Origin: Anthoceros angustus
Taxonomy: Eukaryota > Plantae > Anthocerotophyta
Direction of reading: 5' to 3'
NCBI GenBank assembly: GCA_010909165.1
Contig: VJWM01000118.1
Span: forward strand, 496,001-560,000
Length of the DNA: 64,000 nucleotides
The translations under genes were made by a program, and so were the position numbers. The notes below the pieces were generated by a model, which had not been told where the DNA came from, did not search any database, and saw only the letters and a program-made list of their open reading frames with translations. Each line of letters opens with the position of its first letter. The stretch's first letter is position 1. Shown one piece after another: positions 3,403 through 62,915 of this stretch.

Positions 3403-3603
3403 GTGGGTATTTTCTGCCCTCCAAAAATCATAAGTGACTAGAGCCACAAAATGTAGTGACTAGGAAACATGCACCAACACGGCTGCTGCTGCAGTCACAA
3501 ACACAAAACAGAGTCAGTGCTTACACCTACAGGTTTCACTATCACCAGATAACCCATCTATGGACATTAGCCTGCAAGATCTGAATACTTGCCCGACTAA
3601 TGT

Positions 3604-5622: not shown

Positions 5623-5809
5623 GGGGTATTTTCCGCCTCCAAAATCATAAGTGACTAGAGCCACAAAATGTAGTGACTAGGAAACATGCACCAACATCGG
5701 CCAGCAAACACAAAATGCAGTCAAGGTTTACACCTGTGTTTCACTATCACCGATAACCCATCTATGGACATTAGCCCGCAAGATCAATACTTGCCCGACT
5801 AATGTGTGT

Positions 5810-21197: not shown

Positions 21198-21462
21198 CTG
21201 TCAGCCTCCAACCTCCGATTCCAGGGCAAGAAGCACTCCGGCTCTCAACCGGACGAGACTAGCATAAACCAGCCCCGTCCACGGCACATCCTTCACTCCT
21301 ACACCTAACCAGCAGCAGAGATGGGGTCATACCAATCCCGATCAACCCAACATCGATCCCGCCGCACATTTTCTGCTTGGTGCCCTTGAAGAAATTGCCA
21401 TCTTCCTTGACAAACAGCCCGTGCACGGCCCTGTCGATAGCCCACAAGTACCCAAGTTTCAT
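21181..21462 (-). other. Candidate spliced upstream ORF overlapping the BBX start (exon 21462-21333, intron 21332-21198)
   Basis: Donor TTG|GTATGA; acceptor CTGACAG directly before the BBX ATG; gives a 48-aa peptide ending DEDSL* inside BBX exon 1. Confidence 0.4.
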
Positions 21463-35500: not shown

Positions 35501-35919
35501 GTGTGTGCAGGAAGGGTGATCGGTGATCCGTGCTCGTCCGAGCCGCGTCCGACACCGAACGGACTGAACGTGAGCCGAGGAACTCCGGAGGTGTCGGACG
35601 AGAGGCCCGCGAACGACGGAGGAGGTCCGGATCACAGAACCGCTTTTTTCTAAGATCAAGAGTGTAGCGTGAGAGGAGAGAGGAAAGGATGATGCGTGAG
35701 GATGTATGTGAACGATACGGACGCCAACGGGTCAAACGCTTGGCCATACCGCAGACGGTGAACGCTAGAGTAGTTAGGAGTATGTGTGTTGAGACCGAAC
35801 GAGCGCTAAGGACGGTAAGAATCACCAAACGCTAAACGGGCCTATCATTCCCTTGGGAACGGACTTCTTCCTACAACGACACGGATTGGCGCGGCCGGCT
35901 ATCGAAAAGTCCCGCCACA
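26524..35919 (+). repeat. LTR1, internally rearranged and expanded to ~9.4 kb
   Basis: Starts TGTGGGCTATGCAC after the TSD, ends GCCACA before the PBS; LTR segments restart at ~27550, 27811, 27945, 30108 and 32549. Confidence 0.85.
34785..34943. repeat. Degenerate GTCCGGAC-core tandem array inside the LTR (also ~46121-46250 and ~56055-56147)
   Basis: Seven perfect GTCCGGAC plus GTCCGAC/GTCGGAC variants at ~10-13 bp spacing. Confidence 0.85.
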
Positions 35920-38900: not shown

Positions 38901-41900
38901 GTCCGCCAGCAAATTCTCAAGTTTAAGAAAGGCATGCCTCCGGACCAAGGAAGGACTAAAGCCTGGGGAGTTTTATGGTGTTCGCCTTCAAGGTCACGAC
39001 ATGAAGGGCATTCAAGAAGTGGGAGAGCATAAGATCGATTTGAAGCCGTGAGCGGTGCCACCGAATCCGACAATACAAGCTCAACCCCAAGTATTCGATC
39101 AAGGTGAAGGAGGTCCTTGATAAGTACCGGAGGCAGACATCATTTTCCCCATCACAGCCGAGTGGGTCGCTATGTGGTGGTTCCCAAGAAACAACCAGAC
39201 AAATTCGGTATGCCAAGATTGGAGGAAGCTCAACGAACGGAGAAGGACCACTTCCGATGCCATTCAGACGACATTTTGGACAAGGTGGTCGGACGGACTA
39301 CTTACTCCTTCCCGGATGGCTACTCCGGATATAACCAATTGCACCTAAGGGAGTCGGACCAAGGAAAAGCGGACATCAAGGAGTAACACGATTCACCTCC
39401 GACGAGCTCTTCAGAATGGGGATGCGAGAGGACGATCCCGAGAGGAGGAGGGGTTTGACGCAATGAGGCAAAGACGGAACGGAGACGGTGAACCCGACGA
39501 CGGAAGAAGTGGAGGTCCGCCAGCAAATTCTCAAGTTTAAGAAAGGCATGCCTCCTGACCAAGGAAGGACTAAAGCCTGGGGAGTTTTATGAGGTGTTCG
39601 CCAAGGTCACGACATGAAGGGCATTCAAGAAGTGGGAGAGCATAAGATCGATTTGAAGCCGTGAGCGTGCCACCAATCCGACAATACAAGCTCAACCCCA
39701 AGTATTCGATCAAGGTGAAGGAGGTCCTTGATAAGTACCGGAGGCGACATCATTTTCCCCATCGTCAACAGCCGAGTGGGTCGCGATTGTGGTGGTTCCC
39801 AAGAAACAACCAGACAAATTCGGGTATGCCAAGATTGAGGAAGCTCAACGCCGAACGGAGAAGGACCACTTCCGATGCCATTCAGACGACATTTTGGACA
39901 AGGTGGTCGGACGGACTACTTACTCCTTCCCGGATGGCTACTCCGGATATAACCAATTGCACCTAAGGAGTTTGACCGACAAGACGACCTTCACTACGGA
40001 GTGGGGTACGCTTTGCCTACAAGAGAAGTGCCTTTGGGATGACCGAGCGCCTGTGGTCGCTCATGCGTATGGTGACCAACGCCTTCCGTGACTTCCGAGG
40101 GACTTCATGGAGATATTCTGGATGATTTTGTGTGCATGGGGAGCAGGACAAACACCTTGGGCATCTAAGAAGGTGCTTGAGCGCCGGAGACTCAATTGAG
40201 CCTACACCCGAGAAATGCTACTTTGGAATGACGGAGGGAATCTTGTTGACATCGGTGGCGCTGGAATCGAGGTGGACCAGACAAGGTCCGGTCATCCGCC
40301 TCCACCGACGAACCTAAAGGAGCCGAGAGGTTTCGAATGGTGGGATACTACCGGGTTTATTAAGGACTTTAAAGAGGGCGCTAAGTTGATGTAACCACTG
40401 CAAGGAGGAGGTTTGGACCGTCACGTGAGCGAGAGGAGGCCTTCGGATTTACGTAACACCTTGGTAAGCGCACGGTTCTAAGAGGACCGGATCGAGCAGA
40501 AATTTCATGTGTATGTAGATGTGTCCGCTTTGCTATCGGAGTAGTGCCGAGCCAAGGACGACAAGCGGGATTATCCCGATACTACCGGACGAGACCACCA
40601 CGCGAACGAAAATACACAACTACAGAGGCCAAGCCGGGTATGGTATATCGTCAAGAAATTCGACACTACCTACTACCCTGAGTTTGTGTTCTATGTAGAC
40701 CACTTTGCGTCAAGCATCCGTGAATAAGACGGACCGTCCGGACGGATAGCAAGGTGGATATTGTTGCTGCAGGAGTTCACGTCAAGTGGAAACAAGACAA
40801 GGGAGGCAAGACCAAAATGCGATTTCGTCACGATTGAAAACAGAGGTGTTGAGAGATCGTGAAGATGCCCCGGATGAGACATTGGTTGCCGCAGAAAAGT
40901 ACAACCGAGGAGCCCAGACCGAACCCCAAGCTACGAGAACTGGCAGCCTTAGTGAAGCGGAGAAGGGAGGGCCGGCCGTCCGACCCACGAAGAAATAGAG
41001 CGGTACTGGGAATGGAGCTTCAAAATCACTGTGGGAGAGGAGGCATTCGTGCACTATGCTCGACCCTTCGTAATGTACAACGGTGTGTGTTCAAATTAGG
41101 GCCGGACGGAGTAGAACGAAGGTACTTGCAACCGCAGAGGGAGCGGCCAAGGGAATGCACGAAGGATTGGGGTGGACACTACGCAAAGACAGTCACCACC
41201 AAAAGATTTTGAAGCGGATCGGTGGCCAACAATGTATGGGGACACCCACCGCTTAGAAGAAGTGTGATGCTTGTCCCGATCGGAAAGCCAACCCCGACGA
41301 CACATGGCCGCTAGTACCGATATTGGCACCGCACCTTCGAAAAGTGGGTATTGACTTTGTTGGACCTATACACCACGACAAGACACACACAAAGGAGATA
41401 CATCCCGTGGCAACGGACTCGCACTGTGGGTAGAGGCGGTGGCGACAAGAACGGACTCGCAAATACCGTGGCCAAATTCTGACGAGAACATCATAACCCG
41501 ACGGATGTCCGCCGCAGCTTGGTAAGTGATAGGGGAACCCATTTCCTTAATGATGTGGTGGCCGCCATGACGGAGTATTTCGCATCAATCATCGCAAGAC
41601 GGCACCCTACAATCCTAAGGCCAATGGGTCGAGAGAAGACAAATGGGCTCATCCGCAGGATCCTCAATAAACTCAGGAACTACGCCCATGATCGGATAGC
41701 CGCCATCCGTGACTGTATGCCCGGACAGAGAAGACAAATGGGCTCATCCGCAGGATCCCGAATAAACTCACGTGAACTACGCCCATGACTGGATACCAAG
41801 CCATCCGTGACTGTATGCCCGGACAGCAGAAGGTGACCACACAACGGACCCTTACTTGACCTACGACACTCCCGTAATGCCGTGAGAGTTTGAAGTGCCC

Positions 41901-42878
41901 ACTTTTCGAGTAATGATGGAAGGAGACCGATAAGAGGAAAGCCATGAGCGACTCTTGGGGTTTGCAAAGACAGAGGAGGAAGAAGTGTGATGCTTGTCAC
42001 CGGATCGGAAAGCCAACCCCGACGACACAAAGGCCGCTAGTACCGATATTGGCACCGCACCTTCAAAAGTGGGTATTGACTTTGTTGGACCCACGACAAG
42101 ACACACACAAAGGAGATACATCCCGTGGCAACGGACCACCGCACTGTGGGTAGAGGTATGACAAGAACGGACTCGCAAATACCGTGGCCAAATTCTCGTG
42201 ACGAGAACATCATAACCCGACGGATGTCCGCTTGGTAAGTGATAGGGGAACCCATTTCCTTAATGATGTGGTGGCCGCCATGACGGAGTATTTCGCATCA
42301 ATCATCGCAAGACGGCACCCTACAATCCTAAGGCCAATGGGTCGACAGAGAAGACAAATGGGCTCATCCGCAGGATCTGAATAAACTCAAAGTGAACTAC
42401 GCCCATGATCGGGATACCAAGGCCATCCGACTGTATGCCCGGACAGCAGAAGGTGACCACACAACGGACCCTTACTTGACCTACGACACTCCCGTAATGC
42501 CGTGAGAGTTTGAAGTGCCCACTTTTCGAGTAATGATGGAAGGAGACCGATAAGAGGAAAGCCACCGAGCGACTCTTGGGGTTTGCAAGACACAGAGGAT
42601 GGAAGAAGCAAGAGATGGTGCAAAACCAAAAGATTTGGCACGATCGCCGATCGGGAATCGGAGTATGTAAAGGAAGGGACCCGCCCTCCTTTATGATAGT
42701 CGTTACATGCATTTTCCGTGCAAACTTCACCGAGATGGATGGGTCCGTAAGTGGTGCAAGTATATGACAACGGGTCCGGCTCCACGGCCTAGATGGAGAG
42801 TCGCTGCCCACTGAAACGGGGCGGGTGAAGAAGTATCATGCTTAGTGTTGGCGAGACGCCAATGATGAGAAGGGAGTA
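35920..42878 (+). mobile_element. Internal region 1: gag-PR-RT-RH-INT with local duplications and indels
   Basis: PBS 35923-35933; protease DTG 38177-38185; RT VVVPKK..GYSGYNQ..EIFLDD; INT KWGIDFVGP; ends KKYHA* at 42846; PPT GAGAAGGGAG 42867-42876. Confidence 0.9.
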
Positions 42879-45800
42879 TGTGGGCTATGCACTTCGGGAG
42901 GGGAAATAAGTAGGGTTTCGCTTTTTAGGATTGAAGGATAAATAAGGCGGAAAAGGAGGAATAAATTGGGGTAGCGCCGGACGAGGCTCGGAGTATACTC
43001 CGACTGGAGTGAACAACGGACCCCGACCACTATGGCAAGCTCCTACCACGGAGTAACGGATAAGTCCGGAACCCACCCAGTCAAAATAGGATAAGTACGC
43101 CTGTGAAAGTAACCCAGGAGCGAGGCGTGAGGATGCAGGCGGCGCCACGGACGGCCCCGAGTGGAGGTCGGGCATGGAGGTCAGACTGAATGCAGGCCGC
43201 AGGCGTGTATTCACGCCCGCGCGCGGCGGGGCCGCAGGCAAGCGAGGGTCGAGTAAGCCATGCACTCGCGCATGACAACGGAGGCGCCTTCCGCCAGCAT
43301 TTTCCACAAGCGCGCCAAGGAGGGAGGTCTGCCGCAGCCTCCGCAATCCTCACAGCCTTGCGCCCGCAATCCGGCTCTCGCGCTTTTGGGCGCCTTAGAG
43401 CGTGGCGCTCCAAGGTTGGAGCAACGAACGCGCGAAGGAGGAACATCGTGCCGCCGACTCCGGCCTAGCAGAACAAGAGGAGAGGAGAAAGCAATGGCAC
43501 CCAAAAGCCGACGGAAACTGGGAGCCATGGACCTCGTGGAGCGCAACATTGTGACCCGCGCTATCCGGACTTCCGGCCGGAGGAAGCAGGGAATTGGTGA
43601 GGCATCCGGACGTGTTCCAAATGGTCTCGACCTTGACAACGCTACCTAGTCCGGAGTTTGCCCGAAGATGCCGGGCGGCGATCAACAAGGAGGTCCGATC
43701 CAAGAACCTCCGGAGGACCCGAGGCGATGGACCTTGAGGTCCCGAGGATGGCCTACAACCGCCAAGGAGGAAGAAGGGGCGTGGAGCGGCGGCGGAAGAT
43801 AGGGCCGCCGCGGCCGAGGCTCGAACGCAGCGACAACCAACGGATGGTTGATATCCGATCCGCCGGATACGAGTAAGGGCGGTAGCCCGGATCATTGTCC
43901 ATTGAACCGCCACCAAGGTGGATCACCTTGGTGATAACCTCGCTGGTATTCTCGCATGCGCCCAATGGGGAAGAGAGCGGACGGGGAAGGATTATCTTCG
44001 CCCGCCTGGGAGGCACGAAGCTAAGGAGCGAAGCCTCATCGATCGACCCCATACCGATTCATGTATGGGGACATTTCGAGCTCAAGGAGGGAGAGCTTGA
44101 GCGGGCGCCCGGGCCGGAGGCCCCGCTGTAAGAGCGTGCAAGGGCGCCTGAGGTGGGGGTCGCCTTCAAGACCAAGCGGACTCGGGAGGAGGACGATCGA
44201 GGGATTCCGACTCCATACGCCGAGCGAACCCCTCACCACCTGGGAAGTTTGGGAGGCGATTCCCCTTCCTCCTTTTGGTGCCCCTCCGAGCGGCAGGGAG
44301 GGAGATGCCGGAGGGCGCGGCCCGGCACCCAGACAATGCCAACAACCACGACGCCGAGCCCCGACGAACTGGGAGCCAAGAGGCGGAAGACGGTGCCGCT
44401 TACCAACGCAAAGACCTCGGTGCCGTACTTACCCCGCCCACGGAGTGGCAAGAGGTCAAGAGGCGTGAAGGAGGGCGAAGGGACGTGGCCCAAGGAGCAG
44501 GAGGTCACCGCGCAGCCCCACCTCGAGCCGGTCCTGCCCCCGATGTGAAGGGGCAAAAGAGCCCCTGACCCCTCACCTCCTCCGAGCCCCGGAGAAAGAG
44601 GGCACAAAGGAGTTAGAGGCCAAGAGGGCCAAGAGGGTGAGACTCCTCACCACTGTGACCCGAGGGTCCCGATTAGGTCCGAGAACCCACCGACTTACTC
44701 CGGATCAAGGTATGGAGGTCCTTGATCGAGAAATGCCGGCTCCCACTACGGACTTTGTGGGGCCTCACCGTGGGCCGTGGAAGAAACACGGCGAGTCTAC
44801 ATGGACGGAATGCTTTGGGGTCTCTGTGGTACATGGAGAAGACCTGTGAAGTGGAGGCCACCCGAGGAGGATGGTGGAACCCAAGAGCAAGTGAAGGCGG
44901 CCGAGGGGCAAAGGAAAGGCGGAGTCCCTCGCCGGATCGAGGAAGGGAAACGCCGGTGGCGAGCGAGGCCCCAAGTTCACAGACTGGTTAAGGTTCTTCA
45001 CAGGCGTCAAGCAAGCCTGGGAGGCCCAAGCGGGCGGAGGACCTTGCAGAGGGGAAGCGCAGCAGAGGCGGAAGAGGCCCGGCACAAGCAGAGAGCTCGG
45101 GACTGGCGGAGGCGGCCCGCCAGAAAGGCGGTAAAGGCGCGGGCGAGCCCCGGGTCAGGTGAAGAGCGACCGGATCACGGACGTGATCGAACCGTGGAGA
45201 GAGACAGAAAATGAGGCTAACTGGCCGCACAAAGGCGGGTGGAGGGTGGAGGCCAAGACTGGGAGATAGAGGATCTCCGAGCACACCGCAGGAGGTAGAA
45301 GGAGGCGGCAGCAGATGGAGGGAAGGACACGCTGAGCTACAACCCAAGATGCGTCGGAGCAGCAGTGATTCTCAACGAGAATCCACGACCGAGCACGAAA
45401 TAGAGTAGCCTCTCCGTCAAGACGGAGGAAAATCGGCGACTATCCAAGGAGTTGGACGCTGCCAGGGCGAGCCGGAGGAAGTCCGAGTCGGGACGGAGGT
45501 ATCCGATCACCGGAGAGGGAGTCTGAGCTAAAGGCCGAATGAACGGAGGAGCGCGAGCACGGAAGTAAAAGAAGCCGCCGTCCACGAGAAAGGCGGAAGG
45601 GAACGCCGCGCTATGGCGGTAAGTCGGCAATGGAGAACGACGGAGCCGAGCAGGAGCAACGGGCAGCAGGAGGTGACCGAGGCCGCCTGTAGCCTCGCGT
45701 GATACACCCGCCCACACAACCGGGCAGAGAGGTGGCCCAACAAGCCGGCAAAGACGCCAACACTTATGGCGGAGGGAGTATCGGTGCTCCGCACACGTGG

Positions 45801-47222
45801 AAGAGGCAAAGTCGATCGATTTGCCTTTACCACGCCGAGCTCCCGGCGTGAAGCCTCGACTCCGCAGACGGACGGACCCCGGAAGGCTCAAGGAGATGAA
45901 GGCCACGGGACAAAGACAGGGACCCTAGTGGCCTGCTTTGGAGATGACGGAGCGCGGAGAGAGGAGCAACCGGAGGAGCGAACGAGGGAGCGGATGCGAT
46001 CGAGGTAAGCACCCCGCACCTCACCATGGAAGGAGGGCCAAGGCGAGTCACGGGCGATCGGGAACATGGAAGGACTTGAGGAGAGCCACGGAGGAGTCCC
46101 GTGAGGGAGGAAACCTGGTGAGGACTTTGTCCGACCCGAGGGAGGCGACCAAGTCCGACCAATAAGTCCGACTCAAGTCCGGAAGTCCGACCAAGTCCTG
46201 AATAAGTCCGACCTAGAGACCGAGGTCCGGACCCAGACAAGGTCGGACCTAGCCGGGCCGGACCTGTGAATAAGCCGGACTCAAGTTCGTGAGTCGAGAC
46301 AGACCTCGAGGAGGGACGGGCAAGAAGGAGGAGCCCCTTCGACTTACGCTTAGGGGAGCCGATAGTGGTGGCCCCACCGCGGGGACCTGTGGAGGCCTGG
46401 GAGGATGACGTGCGGGGCTTGTCACCGCCGAGCCCAACCCGGCTGTGATTCCGGGAGAGGAGGGGCCCGCCTCACGGATCATCCGATTGCACCACAACCG
46501 CTGACGGGGATTGACCACCCATTCCGAGGGGGCCTGTGACCTTCCCACTAAGGGAGATAGGGGGATAGGATGGTAGGCCGATTAGGGTATACCGAGGCTA
46601 TCACCGTAATAGGGGTGTAATAAAGACGCCACCTTGGGCGCAGATAAGAGGGCCGAGTTCTAGTAAAGCATCTTTCTCTTGGTGTTGATGCCGTTTGCGC
46701 ACCTTGTGAGTCTTCTTGCTAACGTGAGTCCCGAGTCACCGAAAGGTGCACGGCCCGGGAGATTGATCAAGGTCCCGTGACGGACTTAACGCGCTGTGGT
46801 GTGTGTGTGGAAGGGTGACCGTGATCCGCGGTTCCCGAGCCGCGGTCCAACACCGACCCGACTGAACGCGTGAGCCGGAGGAACTCGGAGGTGTGTAGAG
46901 CCCGGACGGAGAGGCCCTGAACGACGAGGAGGTCCGATCACAGAATCCGCTTTTTCTAAGATCAAGAGGTAGTGAGAGGAGAGAGGAAAGGATCGATGCG
47001 AGGATGGTGAACGATACGGACGCAACGGGTCTAAACGCTTGGCCATACCGGCCTCAGACGGTGAACGCTGTGAGTAGTTAGGAGTATGTGTGTTGACCGA
47101 ACGAGCTAAGGACGGTAAGAATCACCGAACGCGTAAACGGGCCTATCATTCCCTTGGGAACGGACTTCTTCCTACAACGACACGGATTGTGCGCGCCTGG
47201 CCATCAGAAAAGTCCCGCCACA
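42879..47222 (+). repeat. LTR2 (4344 bp)
   Basis: Begins TGTGGGC right after the PPT; ends GCCACA before the PBS. Confidence 0.92.
43032..46008 (+). CDS. Putative LTR-encoded ORF (~990 codons, frameshifted in this sequence); counterpart in LTR3 52919-55937; LTR1 start 26682, stop ~34661
   Basis: Conserved CACTATGGC start and ..ERMRSR-TAA end in all LTRs; charged, protein-like + strand fragments between them (ELLKEGELER, EVEEAQQMEDEG, VEEAIQQVDL). Confidence 0.55.
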
Positions 47223-50200
47223 TTTTTGGCGCCTGCCGGGAATGAAATCGTCTGGTGCCGCAGTGCGCCCTTAGGAAGAGAAGGTAAGTGAATGCGTGGC
47301 CGAGCGGTCAAGAGGAACCGTCAGAGGATCGACGTGGTCACCTCGCTGCCTCCGAGGGAGAGGAGAGACGCCAAACCCAACGAGAGCACCGCCGATCGAG
47401 GAGGGAGAACGTGGTCGAATTGGACCAAGACGAGTACGGGTACAAGGGACGCTAAGAAGGTAGGATGCCCCACGCCTAACCCACCGATGGCGCACCATGG
47501 CCCCTACCGACCAAACAAGCGACTCCATATTCGGAGGAAGAAGGAGCGGATGCGAGACCTTTGTGGAGGACTGTGTCCAAAGCCAACTTCAACGGAGAGG
47601 AGCCGACGCACCATCCAGCCAAGGGGTTCTCCGAGGACACCGCTCAATGGTATCGGAGAAAGTACCGACCACCGGAGAATGCCCCACCCGCCTCGCTTGA
47701 AGCTTTGAAAATGCCTTCTTAGAACGGTTTCGAGGGATCACCAGAGGGTATGTATTATCAAAGTTGGAAAATCAAGCGAGGAAGAAGGAGAAGCCGGGCT
47801 CAGACATCGAGCGGTTCTATGCCCGAGGATCGGCATCCAACCCATACCACGATGGTTCGCGCCGGCCTCTAGCCAAACCCATGGCTGTGCACGCCCCGCC
47901 GCCGAGAAGGACGGGGCAAGGCCGAGCGGCCGAAAACTACGAGGAATCGCTACATCGAGGATAAAGAAATCCGCCAAGGAGGCAAGAAGAAGAAGAAGAA
48001 ACGGGGTTCGACTGAGGAGGAAGAGTCTTCGAGGAGGAGGAAGACCAATCGGAGGTGTCTCGGAGGAGGAGCAGTCCAAGAAGAGACGGAGGTCTCTAGC
48101 GAGGAAGAGTATCCCGCAAGAAGAAGAGCAAGAAAGCCCCAAAAAGAAGTGGGTAAGAAGGAGGTGGTGACACCACCGTCCGAGAAGCCCGCCGGACCCG
48201 ACTCCCTCAAAGGAGGTAGCAGTCCGCGGAGGACCGGAAAAAGTGATAAAGAGAGTAGAGGACCCGCGATAAACTGTTAAGGGAGAGCGCGGAAAACACC
48301 ACTACGAACGCATCTCGTGCCGCAAGAACACGCCATTCGTCCAACCGCCTCAAGGCCGGTGCAAGTGGACTACGAATACGAGGAGGAGGCCGAGGAGCAA
48401 TGGGAAGAGGCCTATCGTGCATGTGAAGCCCCTCCGGGCCGCGATATCCCAAAACCATGTATCCGCCAACCGAGGTCCAATACAACGAGCCCCACCGATG
48501 CAAAGACCGCATGGGAGCCCTTCGTATCCTCCGTGACGCGGGTCTCTGGAACCGCGAATCTCGCCATTACTCCAACGCTGTCCGCACTCAACGAGGTGGT
48601 AATGGGGACTTCGAGCGTGGTGGCGATCGGCCGCATATGGCGTGCAAGACGCTATGTCCCAACCCCGACAAGGACGGTACGATATGCCACACCAAGCGGA
48701 GAACTCGACCACCAACGCCACCTCCTAAGACTGCTACTGACAAGTCAAGATGCTGGCGGAGGGAAGAGATTCTGAGGTACGCGAGATGGAAAAGAACAAG
48801 AAGGTACGGGGGTGTCGAAAGGAAGGGAGTCAGTGGAAATCTTGGAGGTGTCTACTCAGTCAAGGAAGGAGCGACGAGAAAGGCGCCAGCTTGAAGAAGA
48901 ACAAGATCGAGGAAGGCCGGACGCCGAGGAAGGCAATCAAACAAATACCAGCAGAGGATCCGACCGATGAAGGAGGGCTGGACGGGCAGCCGGAGGGATT
49001 ACCCAAGGAAGTTCTCCGCAGATGTGAGAAGGAACGGTGCCTCCCGCGACGGCCGACGTTAGCTTACCGGACGAGTCCGGAGGTGACCGAGATGTTGCAG
49101 GAGGAAATGCGCAAGCATCCGGAATATAACACGGTGATCCGGGAGAGGATGAGGACGCAGCAGGATCCTCGATTGGGGTAGAAGCCTCGCCTTTAATGTG
49201 GCGGACCGATGATGAATCAGCACCTGTGTCCTTTCGACACCGAGGGATAACCCAAAATACCGACAAGAGGTCCGTCGGGTTAGGGAAACCCAGCGGAGCA
49301 CCAAAGCCGTGAAGGGTAGCAAAGGAAGTGAGGGTGGTGTCCCATACGACCTGGGGCCAGTGGTACAAGTGGAGATTTGGATGTATCATCAAGATGTACC
49401 GCTGGACACGGGTCCGAGTCAACCTCATCACCGAAGCCACAAAATTGGGCTTCACATCCTTCAACCTCAACGAAGACTCGAGAATGGCGTATATGTCAAG
49501 AAGAGATCCGCGGGGAGTTAACCGAGTCTTGGCCACCATAGCCGCACCTACAAACCGGATTTTGTTGTGATCAAACCGCCGGACCATTAGGGTATGAGGT
49601 GTTGCTGGCCATGGCTGGGGTTGGCCTGCATAAAGCTACACTTTGGAAGGAAGGAGATTCACTTCAAGCCGGGACTGGGACCCTAAGGTGCGAGAAGGGA
49701 GGTTGCTATCACCGGAGCAAGGACACCTATTGTGGGGAAACCGTGAGCACTACCGGCGACCTCACGGGAGGACTAATCGGGCGATTTAACAAGATAGCTC
49801 CGAGGAGGCGACTTTCGCCAAGATCCGCCGGTCCGAGGAGGAGATGGACTACGCGGATGCCTTTGGCGAAGTGGTTGATTGTTTTCGAGTAAACGCCACA
49901 ACGGGCCGGAGGAAGGAAGTGAAGAGGAGGTCGGACAAGACAAGGGGAGACAAGAGTCGGACCAAGGAAAAGCGGACATCGGAGTAACACGATTCACCTC
50001 CGACGAGCTCAGAATGGGGATGCGAGAGGACGATCCCGAGTGGAGGACGAGGGTTTGGACGCGAGGCAAAGACGGAACGGAGACGTGAACCCGGACGACG
50101 TGGAAGAAGTGGAGGTCCGGCCGGGCAAATTCAAGTTTAAGAAAGGCATCCCGGACAAGGAAGGACTAAAGCACTGGGGAGTTTTATGGTGTTCGCCTTC

Positions 50201-52765
50201 AAGGTCACGGACATGAAGGGCATTCAAGAAGTGGGAGAGCATAAGATCGATTTGAAGCCGAGCTGCCTCAATCCGACAATACAAGCTCAACCCCAAGTAT
50301 TCGATCAAGGTGAAGGAGGTCCTTGATAAGTACCGAGGCAGACATCATTTTCCCCATCGTCAGCGAGTGGGTCGCTACGATTGTGGTGGTTCCCAAGAAA
50401 CACAGACAAATTGGTATGCCAAGATTGAGGAAGCTCAACGCAAGAACGGAGAAGGACCACTTCCGATGCCATTCAGACGACATTTTGGACAAGGTGGTCG
50501 GACGGACTACTTACTCCTTCCTCGGATGGCTACTCCGGATACAACCAATTGCACCTAAGGGAGTGACCGGGACAAGACGACCTTCACTGAGGGGGGCACG
50601 CTTGCCTACAAGAGAAGTGCCTTTGGGATGACCGAGCGCCTGTGGTCGCTCATGCGTATGGTGACCAACGCCTTCCGTGACTTCGAGGGACTTCATGGAG
50701 ATATTCCCGGATGATTTTTGTGTGCATGGGGAGCAGGACAAACACCTTGGACATCTAAGAAGGTGCTTGAGCGCCGGAGACTCAATTGAGCCTACACCCG
50801 AGAAATGCTACTTTGGAATGACGGAGGGAATCTTGTCGACATCGGTGCGGCTGGAATCGAGGTGGACCAGACAAGGTCCGGTCATCCAGCCTCCACCACG
50901 AACCTAAAGGAGCCGAGAGGTTTCGAATGGTGGGATACTACCGGTTTATTAAGGACTTTAAGAGGGCTGCTAAGTTGATGTAATCATCATGAAGGAGGAG
51001 GTTTGGACCCGGTGGAGCGAGAGGAGGCCTTCGGATTTACGTAACACCTTGGTAAGCGCACGGTTCTAAGAGGACCGGATCGAGCAAGAAATTTCATGTG
51101 TATGTAGATGTCCGCTTGCTATCGGAGTAGTGCCGAGCCGGGACGACAAGCGGGATTATCCCGTATACTCTGGACGGCAGCTCACCAGCGAAAATACACA
51201 ACCAGAGCCAAGCACCGGGTATGGTATATGCCGTCAAGAAATTCGACACTACCGCTACCCAAAGGAGTTTGTGTTCTATGTAGACCACTTTGCGTCAAGC
51301 ATCCGGTGAATAAGGCGGACCGTCCGGACGGATAGCAAGGTGGATATTGTTGCCGCAGGAGTTCACGTCAAGTGGAAACAAGACAAGGGAGGCAAGACCA
51401 AAATGCATTTTCGTCACGATTGAAAACAGAAAGGTGTTGAGAGATCGTGAAGATGCTCCGGATGAGACATTGGTTGCCGCAGAAAAGTACAACCGAGGAG
51501 CCCACCGACCGAACCCCAAGCTACGAGAACGGCAGCCTTAGTGTAAGCGGAGAAGGAGGGTCCGCCGTCCGACCCACGAAGAAATAGAGCGGTACCTCCG
51601 GGAATGGAGCTTCCAAAATCGACTGTGATGAGGGAGGCATTCGCACTATGCTCGACCCTTCGTAATGTACAACGGTGTGTGTTCAAATTAGGGCCTGACG
51701 GAGTAGAACGAAGGTACTTACAACCCAGACAGGAGCTCGCCGGAATGCACGAAGGATTGGGGAGGACACTACGCAAAGACAGTCACCACCAAAAGATTTT
51801 GAAGCGGATACCGTGGCCAACAATGTATGGGGACACCCACCGCTTAGAAGAAGTGTGATGCTTGTCACGGATCGGAAAGCCAACCCCGACGACACAAAGG
51901 GCCGCTAGTACCGATATTGGCACCGCACCTTCAAAAGTGGGTATTGACTTTGTTGGACCCATATACCACGACAAGACACACACAAAGGAGATACATCCCG
52001 TGGCAACGACCATCGCACTGTGGGTAGAGGCGGCGACAAGAACGGACTCGCAAATACTGCGGGCCAAATTCGACGAGAACATCATAACCCGCGGATGTCC
52101 GCAGCTTGGTAAGTGATAGGGGAACCCATTTCCTTAATGATGTGGTGGCCGCCATGACGGAGTATTTCGCATCAATCATCGCAAGACGGCACCCTACAAT
52201 CCTAAGGCCAATGGGTGACAGAAGACAAATGGGCTCATCCGCAGGATCTCGAATAAACTCACAGGAACTACGCCCATGATCGGATACCAAGTCGCCATCC
52301 GTGACTGTATGCCCGGACAGCAGAAGGTGACCACACAACGGACCCCTTACTTGACCTACTGACACTCTCCGTAATGCCGAGAGTTTGAAGTGCCCACTTT
52401 TCGAGTAATGATGGAAGGAGACGATGAAGAGGAAAGCCACCGAGCGACTCTTGGGGTTTGCAAAGACAGAGGACAGAAGAAGCTCACCAAGATGCGCTTG
52501 GTGCAAAACCAACAAAGATTTGGCACGATCGATCGCGAATCGTGAGTATGTAAAGGGGGACCCGCCCTCCTTTATGATAGTCGCATGCATTTTCCGTGCA
52601 AACTTCACCGAGATGGATGGGTCCGTACCAAGTGGTGCAAGTATATGACAACGGGTCCGTCGCCGGCGCCTAGATGGAGAGTCGCTGCCCACTCGGGTGA
52701 ACGGGTGGCGGGTGAAGAAGTATCATGCTTAGTGTTGGCGAGACGCCAATGATGAGAAGGGAGTA
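47223..52765 (+). mobile_element. Internal region 2: gag-PR-RT-RH-INT (5543 bp), indel-rich
   Basis: PBS 47227-47241; DTG 49405-49413; RT, RNase H and INT motifs as in region 1; PPT 52754-52763. Confidence 0.9.
47227..47241 (+). promoter_or_regulatory. Primer binding site, tRNA-Asp type
   Basis: TGGCGCCTGCCGGGA versus the Athila/tRNA-Asp complement TGGCGCCGTTGCCGGGGA; shorter variant at 35923. Confidence 0.75.
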
Positions 52766-55700
52766 TGTGGGCTATGCACTCGGGAGTTAAGAAATAAGTA
52801 GGGTTTCGCTTTTTAGGATTGAAGGATAAATAAGGCGAAAAGGAGGAATAAATTGGGGTAGCGCCGGACGAGGCTCGGAGTATACTCCGGACTGGAGTGA
52901 ACAACGGACCCGCACACTATGGCAAGCTCGGACTACGCCGAGTAACGGATAAGTCCGAACCCACCTGTGTCAAAATAGGATAAGTACGCCTGTGAAAGTA
53001 ACCTAGGAGCGAGGCGTGAGGATGACGAGGCGCCACGTGGACGGCCCCGAGTGGAGGTCGGGCATGCGAGGTCGACCGTAACTGCCGAGGCCGCAGGCAG
53101 TATTCACGCCCGCGATCGCGCGCGCGTAAGGCCGCAGTAAGCAAGCGAGGGTCGAGTAAGCCATGCACCGCGCTACGGACAACGAAGAGGCGCCTTCCGC
53201 CCAGTTACTTCCACAAGCGCGAGGAGGGAGGTCCGGCAGCCTCCACCCACATTTGCGCCCGCAATCCGGCTCTGGCGCTATCTTTTGGGCGCCCACTTAG
53301 AGCGCTCACAAGGTTGGAGCGGTGACGAAGGAGGAACATCGCCGACTCGCCAGCCACAAAGAACAAGAGGAGGAGAAGCAATGGCACCCAAAAGCCGGGC
53401 GGAGTCTGGGAGCCATGGACCGTGGAGCGCAACATTGTGACCCGCTATCCGGACTTCGGGCCCCGGCCGGAGGAAGCAGGGAATTGGTGGGAAGTGGCAT
53501 CTGGACGTGTTCCAAATGGTCCGGACCTTGACAACGCACTAGTCCGGAGTTTGCCCGAAGATGTGGCGGCGATCAACAAGGAGGTCCGATCCAAGAACCT
53601 CCGGAGGACCCGAGGCGATGGACCTTGAGGTCCCGAGGATGGCCTACAATCAAGGAGGAAGAAGGGGCGTGGTGCCGAGCCCCTTAAGGCGGAAGATAGG
53701 GCCACATGCCGAGGCTCGAACGCAGGACAACCAACGGATGGTTGATATCCGATCCGCCGGATCGAGTAAGGGCGGTAGCCCGGATCATTGTCCATTGAAC
53801 TCGCCACCAAGGTGGATCACCTTGGTGATAACTGCTGGTATTCTCGCATGCGCCCAGGGGAAGAGAGCGGACGGGAAGGATTATCTCGCCTGCTCACCGA
53901 GGCACGCAAGCTAAGGAGCGAGAAGCCTCGCCATCGGTGACCCATACGATTCATGTATGGGGACATTTCGAGCTCCTCAAGGAGGGAGAGCTTGAACGGG
54001 CGCCTAAGGGCCGGAGGCCCCGCCAAGTAGAGCGTGCAAGGGCGCCTGAGGTGGGGGTCGCCCTTCAAGACCAAGCGGACTCGGGAGGAGGACGATCGAG
54101 GATTCCTGACCCCATGCCCTGAGCGAACCCCTCACCACCTGTGGAAGTTTGGGAGGAGATTCTTCCTCCTTTTGGTGCCCTCCTGAGCAGACAGTGAGGG
54201 AGCCGATGCCGAGGCGGCCCGCACCGGCAGACAACAGCCAACAACCACGACGGCCGCCGAGCCCCGACGAACTCAACGGGAGCCAAGAAGACGGCCGCTT
54301 ACCAACGCACTGGGTGCCGGACTTACCCCGCCCACGGAGTGGCAAGAGGTCAAGAGGCGGAGGAAAAGGACGTGGCCCAAGGAGCTGGAGGTCACCGCGC
54401 AGCCCCACCTCGAGCCTGCCTCCCCCGATGTGAAGGGGCAAAGAGCTTGCTCCGGACCCCTCACCTCCTCCGAGCCCCTGTGAGAAAGAGGGCACAAAGG
54501 AGTTAGAGGCCAAGAGGGCCAAGAGGGTGAGACTCTGACCACCACTGTGACCCGAGGGTCCCGATTAGGTCCGAGAACCCCCGACCCCGATCTGGGTGGA
54601 GGTCCTTGGCGGACCGAGAAATGCCGGCCCCACTACGGACTTTGTGGGGGCCTCACCACGGCCGTGGAAGAAACACGGCGAAGTCCTGCTACCGCCATGG
54701 ACGGAATGCTTTGGGGTCTCTGGTTGGGAGAAGACCTGTGAAGTGGAGGCCACCCGAGGAGGATGGTGGAACCCAAGAGCAAGTGAAGGCGGCCGAGGGC
54801 AAAGGAAAGGCGGAGTCCCTCGCCGGATCGAGGAAGGGAAACGCCGGTGGCGGAGCGCGAGGCCCGGCGGTTCAAGCAGACAAGGTTCTTCACCACAAAC
54901 AAGCAAGCAAGCCTGGGAGGCCCAAGCGCCGGGCGGAGGACCTTGCAGAGGGGAAGCGCAGCAGAGGCGGAAGAGGCCCGGCACGCAGAGAGCTCGGGAC
55001 TGGCGGAGGCGGCCCGGCCAGAGCAAGGGGCGGGGCGGCCTGTAAAGGCGGCGAAGGAGTCAAGCCGCAAAGAGCGACCGGATCACTACAGACGTGATCG
55101 GGCCGGTGGAGAGTCACAGCAGCAATGAGGTTAACTCAAGGCCGTGACAAAGGGCTATGGAGTGCAAGGGCCAAAGGAGGAGATGGAGGCCAAGACTCGG
55201 GAGATAGGAGATCTCCGAGTACACAGGAAGTAGAGGAGGCAGCAGATGGAGGATGAAGGACACGCTGAGCTACAACTCCAAGATGCGCGGAGCAGTGATT
55301 CTCAACGAGAGAATCCACGACTCGAGCACGAAATAGAGTGCCCAGCCGCTCAAGACGGAGGAAAATCGGCGACTATCCAAGGAGTTGGACGCTGCTGTGC
55401 CATGAGCCGGAGGAAGTCCGAGCCTGGACGGAGGTACCGATGAGAGGGAGTCGGAGCTAAAGGCCGTAATGAACGGAGCGCGAGCACCGGAAGAAAAGAA
55501 GCCGGTCCACCGAGAAAGGCGGAAGGGAACGCCGCGCTATGGCGGTAAGCCGCAATGGAGAAAAACGACGGAGCCGGAGTGAGCAACAAAGGCACTGGAG
55601 GTGACCGAGGCCGCCTCGCGTGATATGCCGGCCCACCACAACCGGGCAGAGAGGTGGCCCAACAAGCGCAAAGACGACCCCTAACACTTATGGCGGAGGG

Positions 55701-57152
55701 AGTATCGGTGCCCGCACACGTGGAAGAGGCAATTCAACAAGTCGATCTACTTTGCCTATTACCACGCCGAGCTCCCCAAGTGAGAAGCCTCGACGCCTCA
55801 GAAACGGGACGGACTGGAAGGCTCAAGGAGATGAAGGCCACGGGAAAGACAGGACCCTAGTGGCCCTGCTTGAGATGACGGAGCGGAGAGGAGCAACTGA
55901 GGAGCAGAACGAGGGAGCGCGGATGCGATCGAGGTAAGCACCCGCACCTCACCATGGAAGGAGGGGCCAACGGGAGTCACCGGGCGATCGGCTGGAAGGA
56001 CTTCGAGGGAGAGCCACTGAGGAGTCCCGTGAGGGAGGAAACCGGGTGGGCGTGAGTCGGACTTTGTCCGACCAGAGGGAGGCCGGACCACAGTCCGGAC
56101 CTCAAGTCCGGACCGAGGTCCGGACCCCGAGACAAGGTCGGACCTAGCCACGGACAGAATAAGCCGACTCAAGTTCGGAGTCGAGACAGACCTCGAGGAC
56201 CGGACCGCGGCAAGAAGGAGGAGCCCCTTCGACTTACGCTTAGGGGAGCAGATAGCCGGTGGCCCCACCGCCGAGACCTGTGGGAGGCCAGGAGGATGAT
56301 TGGTAACGGCGTTGTCGATCCGCCAGAGCCCAACCCGGCTGTGATTCCGGGAGAGGAGGGGCCCCGCCACGGATCATCCGATTGGGTGCGCACAACCGCT
56401 GTGACGGGGATTGACCACCCATCCGAGGCGGCCTGTGACCTTCCCACCACAACGAAGGAGATAGGGGAAAATAGGTAGGTAGGCCGATTAGGGTATACCG
56501 AAATTACGCCCGTAATAGGGGTGTAATAAAGACGCCGCCTTGGGCGCAGATAAGAGGGCCGAGCCTAGTAAAGCATCTTTCTCTTGGTGTTGATGCTGCT
56601 GCACCTTTGTGAGTCTTCTTGCTAACGTGAGTCCCGAGTCACCGAAAGGTGCACAGGCGCCCGGGAGATTGATCAAGGTCCCGTGACGGACTTAACGCTG
56701 TGGTGTGTGTGCGGGGAAGGGTGACCGGTGATCCGTCCCCGAGCCGCGCCCGGCACCGAACGGACTGAACGTGAGCCGGAGGAACCCGGAGGGCGTGTAG
56801 AGCCCGGACGAGAGGCCCGCGAACGACGAGGAGGTCCGGACTGTAACCCGCGTTTTTCTAAGACCAAGAGTGTAGCGTGAGGGGAGAGAGGAAAGGACTG
56901 GATGCGTGAGGGATGATGTGAACGATACGGACGCCGAACGGGTCCTTAAACGCTTGGCCATACCGGCTCAGACGGTGAACGCTGTGAGTAGTTAGGAGTA
57001 TGTGTGTGTGTTGAGGACCGAACGAGCGCTAAGGACGTAAGAATCACCAAACGCGGTAAACGGAGCCTATCATTCCCTTGGGAACGGACTTCTTCCTACA
57101 ACGACACGGGATTGTGCGCGCCCGGCTGGCCATCAGCAAAAGTCGCGCCACA
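52766..57152 (+). repeat. LTR3 (4387 bp)
   Basis: Begins TGTGGGC after the PPT; ends GCCACA followed by the TSD GCTAT. Confidence 0.92.
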
Positions 57153-58230
57153 GCTATCTTCTCCGGCAACGTTCTTGGGTGATTGGGCCCTCTCCGCGCT
57201 TGCTTTGGCCTCCCGATTCATCCATCTAGACAGGCCCTTTCTAGTGGATTTTTTTGGGAGGGAGCTTTCCCTCTCCAAGTATCTTTGATTCTGGCTAGGG
57301 ATATGATATCGGCTAATGCGCGGTGCAGCTTCTCTCCCTTCACGACATTCATCACCGATGGTTTCAGGGGGTTGCAGGCTTCCCTGCTTGAGAAGCAGCT
57401 TGGTTAGGCATTCTAGTGCGTCCTCACAGACCCCTCCATCCCTAGGTCCATAAGAGCTTGACTTCACTCTTACTCTGGGAAGGGCGCAGACACTTGGCTA
57501 CTGGCTCATCCATGTATTCGGGGTTTTCACAACGCACCAACCACCTTCTTTACTGCGATGCGCTTCCATCTAAGCTTGCACCAGCTTGTGGCTTCTTCTC
57601 TCCTTACTTACGAATGCAGATCTACCCTCGATGACTCTAGGATACACCTTGCTTGTTGCCCCCATGGGGGTTATCGCATTTCCACCCATGATGCCATCAG
57701 CGATGTCATGTTCGCCATTGCTTGCGAAAGTGGCTACATGGCCTGGAGGGAGCGGGGCCACACTCTTCATATAGGTCATCAATCGTATCGACTTGTATCT
57801 CATTCGGACGACTGTGCTCGCAGTGGTTGCACGCAGTCAATCGACCGTGACGACCATTTTGCAGGTTATCACTAACCATCCAAGTTGCATGTTAGAGCTA
57901 TCAAAGTCGAAATGTAAGCGGATGCGCACCAATTCATTCCGCTCGTCCTTGAAACATATGAGGCGTTGGCTAAGGACTTCGATACATTTCTCAAGTCCTT
58001 GCCAAGGCCTATCATGCCCGCAGGCACAGTGCGGGGCTGTCCCTTTCCTATTTCATGACATTCTTCAGACAACGAGTGTCAACTGCTCTTCAATGAGCTC
58101 TCTCTACGGCGATCATCCACAAAGTAGTGACAGCAAGTGACGCATCCTTCTCTATCTTCTTGGTTTGTAGGCCATTTTCTCTTCCCACGGGTCCCTTTCT
58201 GTTGTCCTCTGCTGGATGCGCTTCTCCCAT
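57153..58230 (+). mobile_element. Non-LTR retrotransposon, CRE/RLE-type, downstream part (RT thumb, zinc knuckle, endonuclease region)
   Basis: Continues LSLELS|SPATFLGDWAL across the TSD; ECRSTLDDSRIHLACCPHGG..THDAISD; FIPLVLETY; FRQRVSTALQ. Confidence 0.85.
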
Positions 58231-59100: not shown

Positions 59101-60651
59101 ATGGAGTGGCGGGTGGGAGTCGTGTTGTTGCTCCTGATCTCGGCCCCGTGGGGGTTCGCGGCGGGGGAGGAGGCGGAGGGGAAGGAGGACGGAGAGCCGG
59201 CCAAGCCTAGCTCCGTTCTGGAGCTGGATGCGTCCAGTTTTGAAGATGCCGTGGCGAAGCATGACTTCATCGTGGTGGAGTTTTACGCGCCGTGGTGCGG
59301 CCATTGTAAGAATCTGGCCCCGGAGTACGAGAAGGCGGCGGAGATTTTGAAGGAGAACGATCCTCCCATCATCCTGGCCAAGGTGGACGGGAACGAGGAG
59401 AGCAACAAGGCGCTGTTGGAGGAGCACGATGTGCGGGGGTTTCCCACGCTCAAGATCTTCCGGAGCAAGGGTTTGGTCGGTGAGGAGTACAAGGGGCCGC
59501 GGGATGCGGAAGGGATTGTGGAGTACTTGAAGAAGCAGGCAGGGCCGGTGTCGCAGGAGCTGAAGTCGGCGGAGCAGGCGAAGGAGTTTGTGGCTAGCGG
59601 TCCCGTGGTGATTGTAGGTTTGTTTGAGGAGTTCGAGGGGGAGGACTACTCCAGGTTTATCATCGCGGCGGAGTCGGTGCGGTCGGATTTTGTTTTTGCG
59701 CACACCAAGGATCCCTCGCACTTGCCCGGGGATGTGAAGGCGCCGGCTGTGGGGCTTTTCAAGGCCTTTGATGAGGGGTTTGCGAGCAGCAAGGACTTCA
59801 GTTTGCAGGCGCTTACGGCCTTCTTTGAGGAGGAGAGTTTGCCGTTGGTGACGGAGATGAACAAGGACCCGGCGTCGCATCCCTTCCTGCTCAGGTTCTT
59901 CAACCACCCGGACCCTAAGGTGTTCTTTTTGGTGGATTACTCGTCGAGCAATATCGATGAGCACAAGAAGGTGTATTCGGAGCAGGCCAAGGTTACCAAG
60001 GGGAAGGGCCTCAAGTTCTTGATCGCCAACTTGGAGGAGGCTGATAATGCCCTCAAGTTTTTCGGGCTAGAGAGGGAGGTGGCCCCCGTCCTCATCATCC
60101 ACGACAACGAGGACCACAAGTTCATCAAGCAGAATGCCGAACCCTCGGAGGTGGCGTCCTGGATTTCTGACTACTTCGAGGGCAAGTTGGTGCCGCATGT
60201 GAAGTCCGAGCCTGTTCCCGAGACCAATGATGAGCCCGTGAAGGTTGTGGTGGGGAAGACGTTGAAAAGCTTTCTGGATTCTGGCAAGTTCGTCCTGTTG
60301 GAGTTCTACGCCCCGTGGTGTGGGCACTGCAAGAAGCTGGCTCCCACTCTGGATGAAGTGGCTGAGTCCTTTAAGGACAAGTCTGATGTGGTGATCGCCA
60401 AGTTCGATGCCACGGCCAACGATGTTCCCAAGGATGTGTTCCAGGTGGACGGCTTTCCGACCTTGTATCTCCATACTCCCAAAGGTGATGTCGTTCTATA
60501 CACCGGTGACCGGAGCAAGGAAGATCTCATAGAGTTCATTGAGAAGCATAGGAACCCAGACTTTGTAAGCCATCTGGAATCAGTGACAGAGTCTACGACA
60601 GAAGAGTCCAAGACAGGAGAGGGTGCAGAGGATGTCAAAGATGAGTTGTAA
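59101..60651 (+). CDS. PDIL1: Protein disulfide isomerase (a-b-b'-a'), 516 aa, intronless
   Basis: Signal peptide, two WCGHCK thioredoxin sites, C-terminal KDEL; one uninterrupted frame. Confidence 0.96.
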   Translation: MEWRVGVVLLLLISAPWGFAAGEEAEGKEDGEPAKPSSVLELDASSFEDAVAKHDFIVVEFYAPWCGHCKNLAPEYEKAAEILKENDPPIILAKVDGNEESNKALLEEHDVRGFPTLKIFRSKGLVGEEYKGPRDAEGIVEYLKKQAGPVSQELKSAEQAKEFVASGPVVIVGLFEEFEGEDYSRFIIAAESVRSDFVFAHTKDPSHLPGDVKAPAVGLFKAFDEGFASSKDFSLQALTAFFEEESLPLVTEMNKDPASHPFLLRFFNHPDPKVFFLVDYSSSNIDEHKKVYSEQAKVTKGKGLKFLIANLEEADNALKFFGLEREVAPVLIIHDNEDHKFIKQNAEPSEVASWISDYFEGKLVPHVKSEPVPETNDEPVKVVVGKTLKSFLDSGKFVLLEFYAPWCGHCKKLAPTLDEVAESFKDKSDVVIAKFDATANDVPKDVFQVDGFPTLYLHTPKGDVVLYTGDRSKEDLIEFIEKHRNPDFVSHLESVTESTTEESKTGEGAEDVKDEL

Positions 60652-61657: not shown

Positions 61658-62400
61658 AGTAACACCCCCTTTTCAGGGAGGTGGGGCCGTCATGTAGTTA
61701 GTGACAAAAACATCACCAGACACCAGCACTAGGCCTCCAAGTAGCCCGCCGTCCTTCCACGGACGACTGGTGACGTCTGCCGCTGCTCCAAGTAGCCCGC
61801 CGTCCTTCCACGGGATGACTCAGCCGACGTCATTGCTTTATACCAACAAGAGTCAACAAGAATACATGAGAGATCAGAGAGAGCTCCTCATCTTTGCCTA
61901 AGCTAGAAGCTTAGCTCTCTCCCCTCGATCTCCTCCTCAACAGCTGTCCTCTAGCACGCTCACACTCTAGGCTCCCAAGGCCTCTAGGCTCCAAAGTCCT
62001 ATCTTCACAAGAGTGTAGCTCCCAAGTGCTAGGATCCTTCTTGACATGCTCACACTCAAGGCTCCCAAGGCCTTTAGGCTCCAAAGTTCTATCCTCACGA
62101 GTGTAGCTCCCCATGCTAGGATCACAAGATGCTTCTCTACGGCTAGCCTCATCTCCTTTTATAGGGAGGCTTACAACATTTCCAAAGTAACTGCTTAAAG
62201 CAGACTTTCTTCCTTAAGCCCTAAGCTAAGTCTTACCACCACTACTTACAACTTACTGACTAGATCCATGGCTGCATGCTAGACTTTCTTCCTTAAGCCC
62301 TAAGCTAAGTCTTACCACCACTACTTACAACTTACTAACTAGATCCATTGCTGCATGCTAGACTTTCTTCCTTAAGCCCTAAGCTAAGTCTTACCACCAC
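61658..62400 (-). mobile_element. Degenerate solo-LTR-like remnant with internal tandem repeats
   Basis: (A)GTAACACCCC terminus resembling TGTAACACCCC; minus-strand CCCTATAAAAGG near 62155-62166; no second terminus or TSD found. Confidence 0.45.
62202..62400. repeat. 79-bp tandem repeat, 2.5 copies
   Basis: agactttcttccttaagccc starts at 62202, 62281 and 62360. Confidence 0.92.
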
Positions 62401-62782
62401 CAATTTTTGTAACTATATGCATATATTAGACCTCGCATCATAAAAGTCTAGCTATGTCTTCCATTAACAAGTTTGTTTCTTATCTTTGTAATTCGTTTGA
62501 TCAATCTCATTCAAGTTATTCTAATGAAAACCCTCACAAATAAAACTTTCTCATTTTGCGGTCTCACAATGAGCTAATTATCAAATAAGCCACATACATG
62601 AGAATGCAAAACTAATTAAACTAACGGTTGTTTTGATGTACGTGAATTTTTAGCATGTATTTCTAGTGTGGAAGTGTTAGTGAAAAGAGGTGCATCTAAG
62701 TAACAGCCTAGAGAAAGATGATAGGTTTATACTACAGTAATTTGTCCACTGTGTTTATCTACAGGATGCATGACGACTTGTA

Positions 62783-62915
62783 CAATTATGATATAGAACT
62801 ATTCAACAAATAAATAACATGTTAGTTTTGTCCTTGCTAAAAAAAGGCCAATTATGATATAGAACTATTCAACAAATAAATAACATGTTAGTTTTGTCCT
62901 TGCTAAAAAAGGCAA
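62783..62915. repeat. 66-bp tandem duplication
   Basis: caattatgatatagaactattcaac starts at 62783 and 62849. Confidence 0.92.

Follow-up and report, generated by a model that had tools for sequence, protein, structure and literature searches.

A predicted spliced mRNA for a probable large open reading frame inside the long terminal repeat of an Athila-like Ty3 retrotransposon of Anthoceros angustus

How could an open reading frame (ORF) of about 1,100 codons be translated if it lies inside the long terminal repeat (LTR) of a retrotransposon, upstream of the likely promoter? This question is raised by an Athila-like Ty3 LTR retrotransposon of Anthoceros angustus, located at 26524-57152 of a 64,000-nucleotide stretch (contig VJWM01000118.1, positions 496,001 to 560,000, assembly GCA_010909165.1), hereafter called the window; all features of the element are given on the forward (+) strand. 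An ORF so placed comes last on the genomic RNA and therefore needs either a splice or a promoter of its own. An initial annotation of the sequence had proposed a dedicated spliced mRNA, made by joining a donor after the primer-binding site (PBS) to an acceptor within the LTR. Donor, acceptor and layout fit this proposal; the junction itself was not seen, other acceptors compete for the donor and the closest intact relative is ambiguous. Judged from the sequence, the LTR ORF is probably, if only by a little, translated from a singly spliced RNA joining donor 47283 to acceptor 52817, a joint not seen in RNA. The splice model fits the anatomy of the element better than any rival.

The predicted major splice donor, a consensus match reading AAG|GTAAGT (47281-47289), is cut at 47283/4, and the same donor occurs at 35974/5 in the first internal copy of the element. 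Both positions agree with the initial annotation, which had placed a perfect donor between PBS and likely gag AUG in the two internal copies. The donor lies about 43 nt 3' of the PBS and a gag-like ATG (47292) follows 8 nt further, so that a strong donor stands between PBS and gag AUG, as in singly spliced mRNAs of the retrovirus type. Among 459 GTs in 46675-56600 it is the sole 9/9 match to MAG|GTAAGT, and the chance of a 9/9 donor was P = 2.4e-4 per 69-nt segment (42,300 simulated segments). The whole window holds three copies of MAGGTAAGT compared with 0.70 expected, one of them (567) outside the element. Host splice sites were verified with the RNA data, one run of this organism (X1) with host exons at 100% identity and GT-AG joints; the eight host donors verified in this way reach 6-8/9, all below the 9/9 of the element. 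Acceptors were scored by a simple pyrimidine/T count, with a host range of 12-18. Since no YAG within 60-400 nt of the post-PBS donor scores above 9, this donor has no ordinary short intron. A second donor-like site, AAC|GTGAGT (46721-46729, 8/9 with R allowed), lies in the presumed R-U5.

The predicted acceptor, TTTTTAG|G (52799-52817), has its AG at 52815-6, and its 5' part also reads as the telo-box-like word TAGGGTTT. The pyrimidine tract and AG that the initial annotation had seen about 50 nt into each LTR were found again, at 51 nt into the 3' LTR for 52816, with counterparts at 42927-8 and 26581-2; two further acceptor AGs, absent from that annotation, occur in stutter copies (27595-6 and 27990-1). 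With a score of 16 the acceptor at 52816 ranks third among 148 YAGs. It is the best non-coding YAG of the element, both higher-scoring sites lying within the coding sequence of reverse transcriptase (RT) and RNase H (RH). Its chance probability is about 0.024-0.028 per segment of 155-190 nt, and 0.007-0.008 with G at +1; its score was matched in 3 of 52 real segments. Seven of the eight verified host acceptors score lower. As had been claimed, the first ATG past the acceptor is the start of the LTR ORF, 103 nt on at 52919, and the AUG-free interval provides, on motifs, the open path from acceptor to 3' ORF known from retroviruses. The predicted intron, 47284-52816, measures 5533 nt as first calculated.

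It is likely, from the sequence, that the long LTR holds a large extra ORF upstream of its likely promoter. The 3' LTR (52766-57152, 4387 bp, TG...CA) carries a sense ORF of about 3.3 kb (52919-56300), which would comprise about 1,100 codons if continuous, its end being approximate because of read errors. Over 52919-56290 and in the equivalent part of the middle LTR, stop triplets occur at 0.79 (P 0.004) and 0.75 (P 0.002) of the expected number, as against ratios of 1.3-1.4 in the LTR past the ORF and 0.49-0.68 in coding controls; taken alone, neither the first nor the last third of the ORF shows a significant depletion, which is weak towards the end. Within a 39-nt block chosen by hand, in which a diverged variant differs, one frame shows 6 synonymous and 2 nonsynonymous changes; the two remaining forward frames have 1/6 and 0/7, and a reverse frame has 5/2. 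The likely LTR core promoter is a TATA-like GATAAGAG with CA and a pyrimidine patch (Y-patch) about 28 nt on (46643-46690), the top site of its kind in both full LTRs. In the 3' LTR it lies at 56549-56595, downstream of the ORF, which would therefore belong to U3. At the position of the TATA-like site an X1 contig of a diverged paralog reads TATAAGAG. An AATAAA stands 24 nt 5' of the site (56525-56530 and 46619-46624), and the end of one of the paralog contigs falls some 45 nt past it.

Similarity searches gave no further hint of the nature of the LTR ORF. Its fragments, as noisy queries, had no matches in searches of protein collections, one of which went through 630 candidates, or in those made with profile A2 and Pfam, and the noisy RT of the window had none in a protein collection, viral contigs and PDB. 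Plain tblastn of the ORFs of related elements against the LTRs of the window returned nothing, the exact acceptor pattern was not found in metagenome contigs, and Rfam gave no match. Folding of the leader RNA was no better than that of shuffles (z 0.53). We do not label the ORF env. Pfam gave no match for the window fragments or for the partial ORF of the relative described below.

In the splice model, RNA synthesis would start near 46670. Unspliced RNA would serve both as gag-pol mRNA and as genome. Splicing would remove the gag AUG, all of gag-pol, the polypurine tract (PPT, 52754-52763) and the first 51 nt of U3, and past short upstream ORFs of the leader the AUG at 52919 would be the first after the junction. 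The spliced RNA would retain the PBS and lack PPT and U3 end; because both lie in the intron, it would give no complete, integrable cDNA and, if the model is true, would not be retrotransposable. What the sequence shows is the motifs with their ranks, the layout, the TSD and a relative with an ORF inside its LTR; the position of the promoter, the continuity of the ORF, the splice and the role of the protein we infer.

Several observations weigh against the model. The junction 47283|52817 is absent from X1, a blank counted neither way as X1 does not cover this element family, and the joined form does not occur in the window. Three of the 71,256 X1 contigs touch the element, as 18-39-nt pieces that come from a diverged paralog and fall entirely in the LTR-ORF/U3 part; gag-pol and the start of the first LTR are without cover. 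An intron of 5.5 kb would be 25-65 times as long as the host introns seen (12 resolved, 82-210 nt). The predicted 5' exon contains five AUGs, all of which close before the junction. A frame-free test of codon periodicity over all copies gave no coding signal, a test that we consider uninformative. Apart from this, X1 records 1-3, of a diverged paralogous family, show brief collinear matches to the LTR ORF and promoter region (53029-56537), which suggests that this organism transcribes a relative of the LTR-ORF region.

Concerning conservation, RT relatives were taken as the best 80 of 473 from a metagenome scan. The closest intact relative among these, L001, has 122/222 and 127/219 identical RT residues (55-58%) in comparison with the window. 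It has the same type of PBS, intact, and the Pfam order RVT_1, RT_RNaseH, Integrase_H2C2, rve. Its LTR end repeats, in inverted form, a TG start which follows a PPT-like tract at 6149; since the two pieces of the LTR share no overlap, the LTR start is a deduced one. Inside this LTR a sense ORF begins at 6662 and runs off the contig. Compared with the window on both strands in a frameshift-tolerant manner, the ORF gave four top peaks, which are the four copies of the N-terminal part of the LTR ORF in the same register, the fourth being tied with a fifth and the four copies not being independent. The mean of the four peaks was 65.8, compared with 41.6 +/- 4.4 in 40 shuffles. On the other side, 3 of the 40 shuffles attained the best single-copy score (79) at some place in 31 kb, and hhalign of profile A2 with the L001 ORF was not significant (E 0.064, probability 0.9%). 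Given this weak and collinear similarity, the two LTR ORFs are likely, not proven, to be homologous. The L001 ORF has no Pfam match at E <= 0.1, no PDB match and no entry in an exact-sequence collection; neither it nor the L001 RT found relatives in viral or prokaryote-genome contigs, and its predicted fold is unusable (pLDDT 36.6).

The signals of L001 point in more than one direction. An acceptor with a score of 15, tied for third to eighth of 184, lies 93 nt upstream of the ORF AUG, and the stretch between them is free of AUGs, as the splice model expects. Against the model, the post-PBS donor of L001 is just 6/9, and three AUGs follow a T-rich AG at LTR+117. Moreover, a TATA-like plus Y-patch site at 6478 is followed by an AUG-free leader of about 180 nt up to the AUG at 6662, an 8/9 donor lies 19 nt before this AUG, and YAGs (272/275) stand just before the gag AUG. 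L001 is thus ambiguous, its layout also fitting a promoter of its own for the ORF or a different splice pattern. A matching Asp-type PBS was found in 8 of the 80 loci, and in 5 of the 7 besides L001, mostly of one family, a donor of 7-8/9 follows 18-19 nt later. A strong donor soon after the PBS is a frequent feature of related Athila-type loci. Other members of the RT clade of the window are too short or decayed to reveal their LTR starts.

Alternatively, the ORF might be driven by a promoter of its own, placed where U3 begins or where pol ends, and be made from any LTR, solo LTRs included. The T-rich stretch at 52816 would then be a promoter element and no long splice would be needed. Its overlap with the telo-box-like TAGGGTTT counts against the splice model, and the stretch could also act as a Y-patch after an AT-rich word: the AT-rich words at 52789-52793 together with the T tract are the next-best TATA plus Y-patch hits of the window. 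The site at 6478 in L001 with its AUG-free leader speaks for the same arrangement, and internal promoters are used for sag of mouse mammary tumour virus (MMTV) and for accessory genes of foamy viruses. However, there are just 153 nt from the LTR start to the AUG; the AT-rich words depart from TATAWAWR at 2 positions, and the diverged variant carries a change in one of these words; and the 9/9 donor would be left without a partner within 400 nt. We consider an own promoter unlikely, while giving it a real chance.

The post-PBS donor might also have a main partner other than the LTR AG. Seven other YAGs of host range (scores 12-17) precede the LTR acceptor in pol and would compete with it for the donor; of the eight host-range YAGs 3' of the donor, the LTR one alone lies outside coding sequence. 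In addition, U1 at the major donor of foamy viruses suppresses 5'-LTR polyadenylation independently of splicing, according to the accessible part of PMC3694450, so a strong donor can act there without any splice. Both points detract from the splice model. Splicing into pol, however, would give truncated products without evident use, coding constraint explains the pol AGs, and the translation of the U3 ORF would be left unexplained, which makes this explanation improbable. Least probable is a promoter upstream of the ORF, placing it in R/U5 as first cistron of the genomic RNA with gag-pol made by a mirror-image splice, or else chance motifs or a decayed ORF: the 8/9 donor and the YAGs 272/275 of L001 and the AATAAA upstream of the downstream TATA-like site of the window suit the R/U5 arrangement, but no donor of the window exceeds 5/9 from the LTR start to the ORF AUG, the strong donor sits after the PBS where splicing removes gag, and a 9/9 donor would be there by chance at about 2e-4.

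The element is, by its sequence features, an Athila-like Ty3 retrotransposon. It has the TG...CA LTRs, target-site duplication (TSD), PBS, PPT and domain order protease (PR), RT, RH and integrase (IN) of Ty3/gypsy LTR retrotransposons. Of the features by which REXdb defines Athila, it shows a 5-bp TSD and, behind an AT-rich spacer, a PBS of Asp/Asn type that is noisy in the two copies of the window. The PBS at 47227-47241 follows a T spacer; it is intact in L001 and corresponds to the Athila motif in the available text of bioRxiv 10.64898/2026.03.20.713144. Gag-pol (47292-52732, PR-RT-RH-IN) is frameshifted by read errors and ends with a stop at 52730-52732. Neither room nor motif for an aRH domain or a chromodomain was seen by eye in the window fragments, and the pol of L001 has no such Pfam match. 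The extra ORF of Athila between pol and 3' LTR is missing here: the pol stop is at 52732, the LTR starts at 52766 and the ORF at 52919. Tat elements (TatI-III, Ogre, Retand) were rejected for want of an aRH domain, and Phygy and Selgy by the 5-bp TSD, Asp-type PBS and length of about 14.3 kb, compared with 4-bp TSDs, tRNA-Trp or tRNA-Ala PBS and 5-9 kb.

A quick RT tree of 74 of the 80 loci and 2 window rows, midpoint-rooted and built without named reference rows, pairs the window with L001 (SH-aLRT 94) in a clade of 15 rows. This clade stands apart, under the same rooting, from one of 61 rows that holds loci bearing PF20167, the Pfam family matched by the four Athila-type extra ORFs tested, which lie between or after pol and 3' LTR. 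Because the tree has no named RT references, the label goes no further than Athila-like.

The locus as assembled has the layout LTR-internal-LTR-internal-LTR, enclosed by a single 5-bp TSD with the same 5-mer at 26519-26523 and 57153-57157. The first LTR (26524-35919) is enlarged by stutter duplications. It is followed by the first internal region (35920-42878), which contains PBS, donor 35974/5 and gag-pol with stutter duplications, and by the middle LTR (42879-47222) with acceptor 42928 and TATA-like site 46643. The stutter duplications are confined to the first LTR and first internal region. With LTRs of about 4.35 kb the element, counted as a single copy, measures about 14.3 kb. Middle and 3' LTR differ by 282 gap events, 71 transitions and 79 transversions; differences between copies are mainly indels of 1-3 nt, with transitions about as frequent as transversions. 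The same indel-rich profile is found in a duplication outside the element (3072-7480), and host exons are 100% identical to the RNA contigs. We read the differences as unpolished long-read errors in repeats, and the tandem may be an assembly artefact. As these differences are mainly read-error indels under one TSD, the copies in the window are not independent evidence and were rejected as a measure of conservation; the initial annotation was right about the positions at which donor and acceptor recur in the internal copies and LTRs, and their recurrence does not count as conservation. The exception is 26524-27546, a truly diverged variant set apart by 19 transitions and 6 transversions of its own, in which the acceptor (26582) is T-richer (score 23) and a TATA-like word before the ORF is changed, both in favour of the splice model.

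The insertion site of the element is a LINE-like reverse-transcriptase fragment (25500-26523 and 57153-57600; RVT_1 E 2.6e-5 at 25701-26111). The duplication at 3072-7480 is a 2.2-kb tandem across a Roc-COR (COR-A) gene and probably assembly stutter. A phospholipase D gene (C2 + PLDc) occupies 15640-20109, its GT-AG introns confirmed by RNA contigs, and its minus-strand neighbour (20110-21769) has a GC-AG intron at 20110-20235. On the plus strand, 59101-60651 encodes a protein disulfide isomerase (PDI) in one uninterrupted ORF of 516 codons with 100% coverage to homologs; among the best 120 matches listed, a transcript is 68% identical, a lycophyte protein 55% and seed-plant proteins 49-56%, as suits a non-seed land plant. 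As a rule, PDI genes of land plants contain many introns; the absence of introns here may point to a retrogene or to a trait of the lineage. Downstream of it, 61955-62910 contains short tandem arrays with units of 17, 45, 79 and 66 bp.

What would the LTR-internal ORF mean, if real? We hold it possible, somewhat short of probable, that a non-seed-plant Athila-like lineage has shifted its third gene, about 1,100 codons long and without a known family, to a place entirely within U3, from where the gene is expressed through a retrovirus-style splice to an LTR-internal acceptor. Every LTR or solo LTR would then be a ready 3' exon with acceptor, ORF and poly(A) region, which could trap upstream host transcripts. 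Shared by two elements whose RTs are 55-58% identical, an LTR-internal ORF would mark a place for a gene that has been overlooked, and it could help to explain some very long LTRs. Annotation that seeks extra ORFs just between the LTRs would miss this class of genes. Published plant surveys, in their accessible parts, class extra ORFs by 5' or 3' place (PMC6317226) and find them mostly between pol and 3' LTR (PMC7264820). We found no published report of an ORF or acceptor inside the LTR or U3 of a plant retrotransposon, in a literature search that took in few subscription papers and in which one hit, PMC6673714, proved unrelated; Additional files 1 and 3 of PMC6317226 may bear on this point.

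Among known systems, described here from the accessible parts of the sources cited, the closest is Athila, a group of OTA non-chromovirus Ty3/gypsy elements including Athila4, ATHILA2/6 and barley Bagy2. The element shares with them the Asp/Asn-type PBS after an AT-rich spacer, the 5-bp TSD, the lack of aRH and a length of about 14 kb (PMC6317226, bioRxiv 10.64898/2026.03.20.713144). It also shares a strong post-PBS donor with related loci, and a sense extra ORF after pol; spliced mRNAs for the 3' ORF have been reported for ATHILA (ORF2, PMC7197481) and Bagy2 (PMC7264820), so that the splicing strategy is already known there, which limits the surprise. In contrast to Athila, where the ORF lies between pol and PPT, pol ends here 33 nt before the LTR, and ORF and acceptor are inside it. 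The four extra ORFs tested from Athila-type loci match PF20167, whereas the LTR ORF of L001 matches nothing at the threshold used, and the RT of the window falls with that of L001 into a separate clade of a tree without named references. The element further resembles the basal OTA lineages of non-seed plants without aRH (Tat Z1/Z2, Phygy, Selgy), in which the internal region is almost all gag-pol (PMC6317226, PMC13468544, PMC10508981). It differs from Phygy (4-bp NCGN TSD, tRNA-Trp PBS, about 8.6 kb) and from Selgy (4-bp TSD, tRNA-Ala PBS, about 5 kb), for neither of which the available text of PMC6317226 lists extra ORFs.

In the place of its ORF the element resembles vertebrate retroviruses, namely MMTV sag, nef of human immunodeficiency virus and foamy-virus bel, which lie in or overlap U3, and if real it would be a plant parallel to LTR-encoded retroviral accessory genes. 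Vertebrate retroviral U3 ORFs have a few hundred codons, and their expression relies either on an internal promoter or on splicing at the major donor. Here, by contrast, an ORF of about 1,100 codons would fill three quarters of a 4.35-kb LTR, with the acceptor inside U3 and the PPT in the intron; no sequence relation is claimed. Sag is described as LTR-encoded, in both LTRs, in the part of PMC11998498 available. A further likeness, by description, is to CERV of the Caenorhabditis elegans element Cer1, an accessory protein of an LTR retrotransposon that is made from a spliced mRNA and is needed to export unspliced genomic RNA (PMC10309623, accessible part). CERV differs in being multi-exon, in sharing gag sequence and in not being LTR-internal. 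As a strong donor creates the problem of exporting unspliced RNA, the Rev/CERV question of its nuclear export would arise for this element too.

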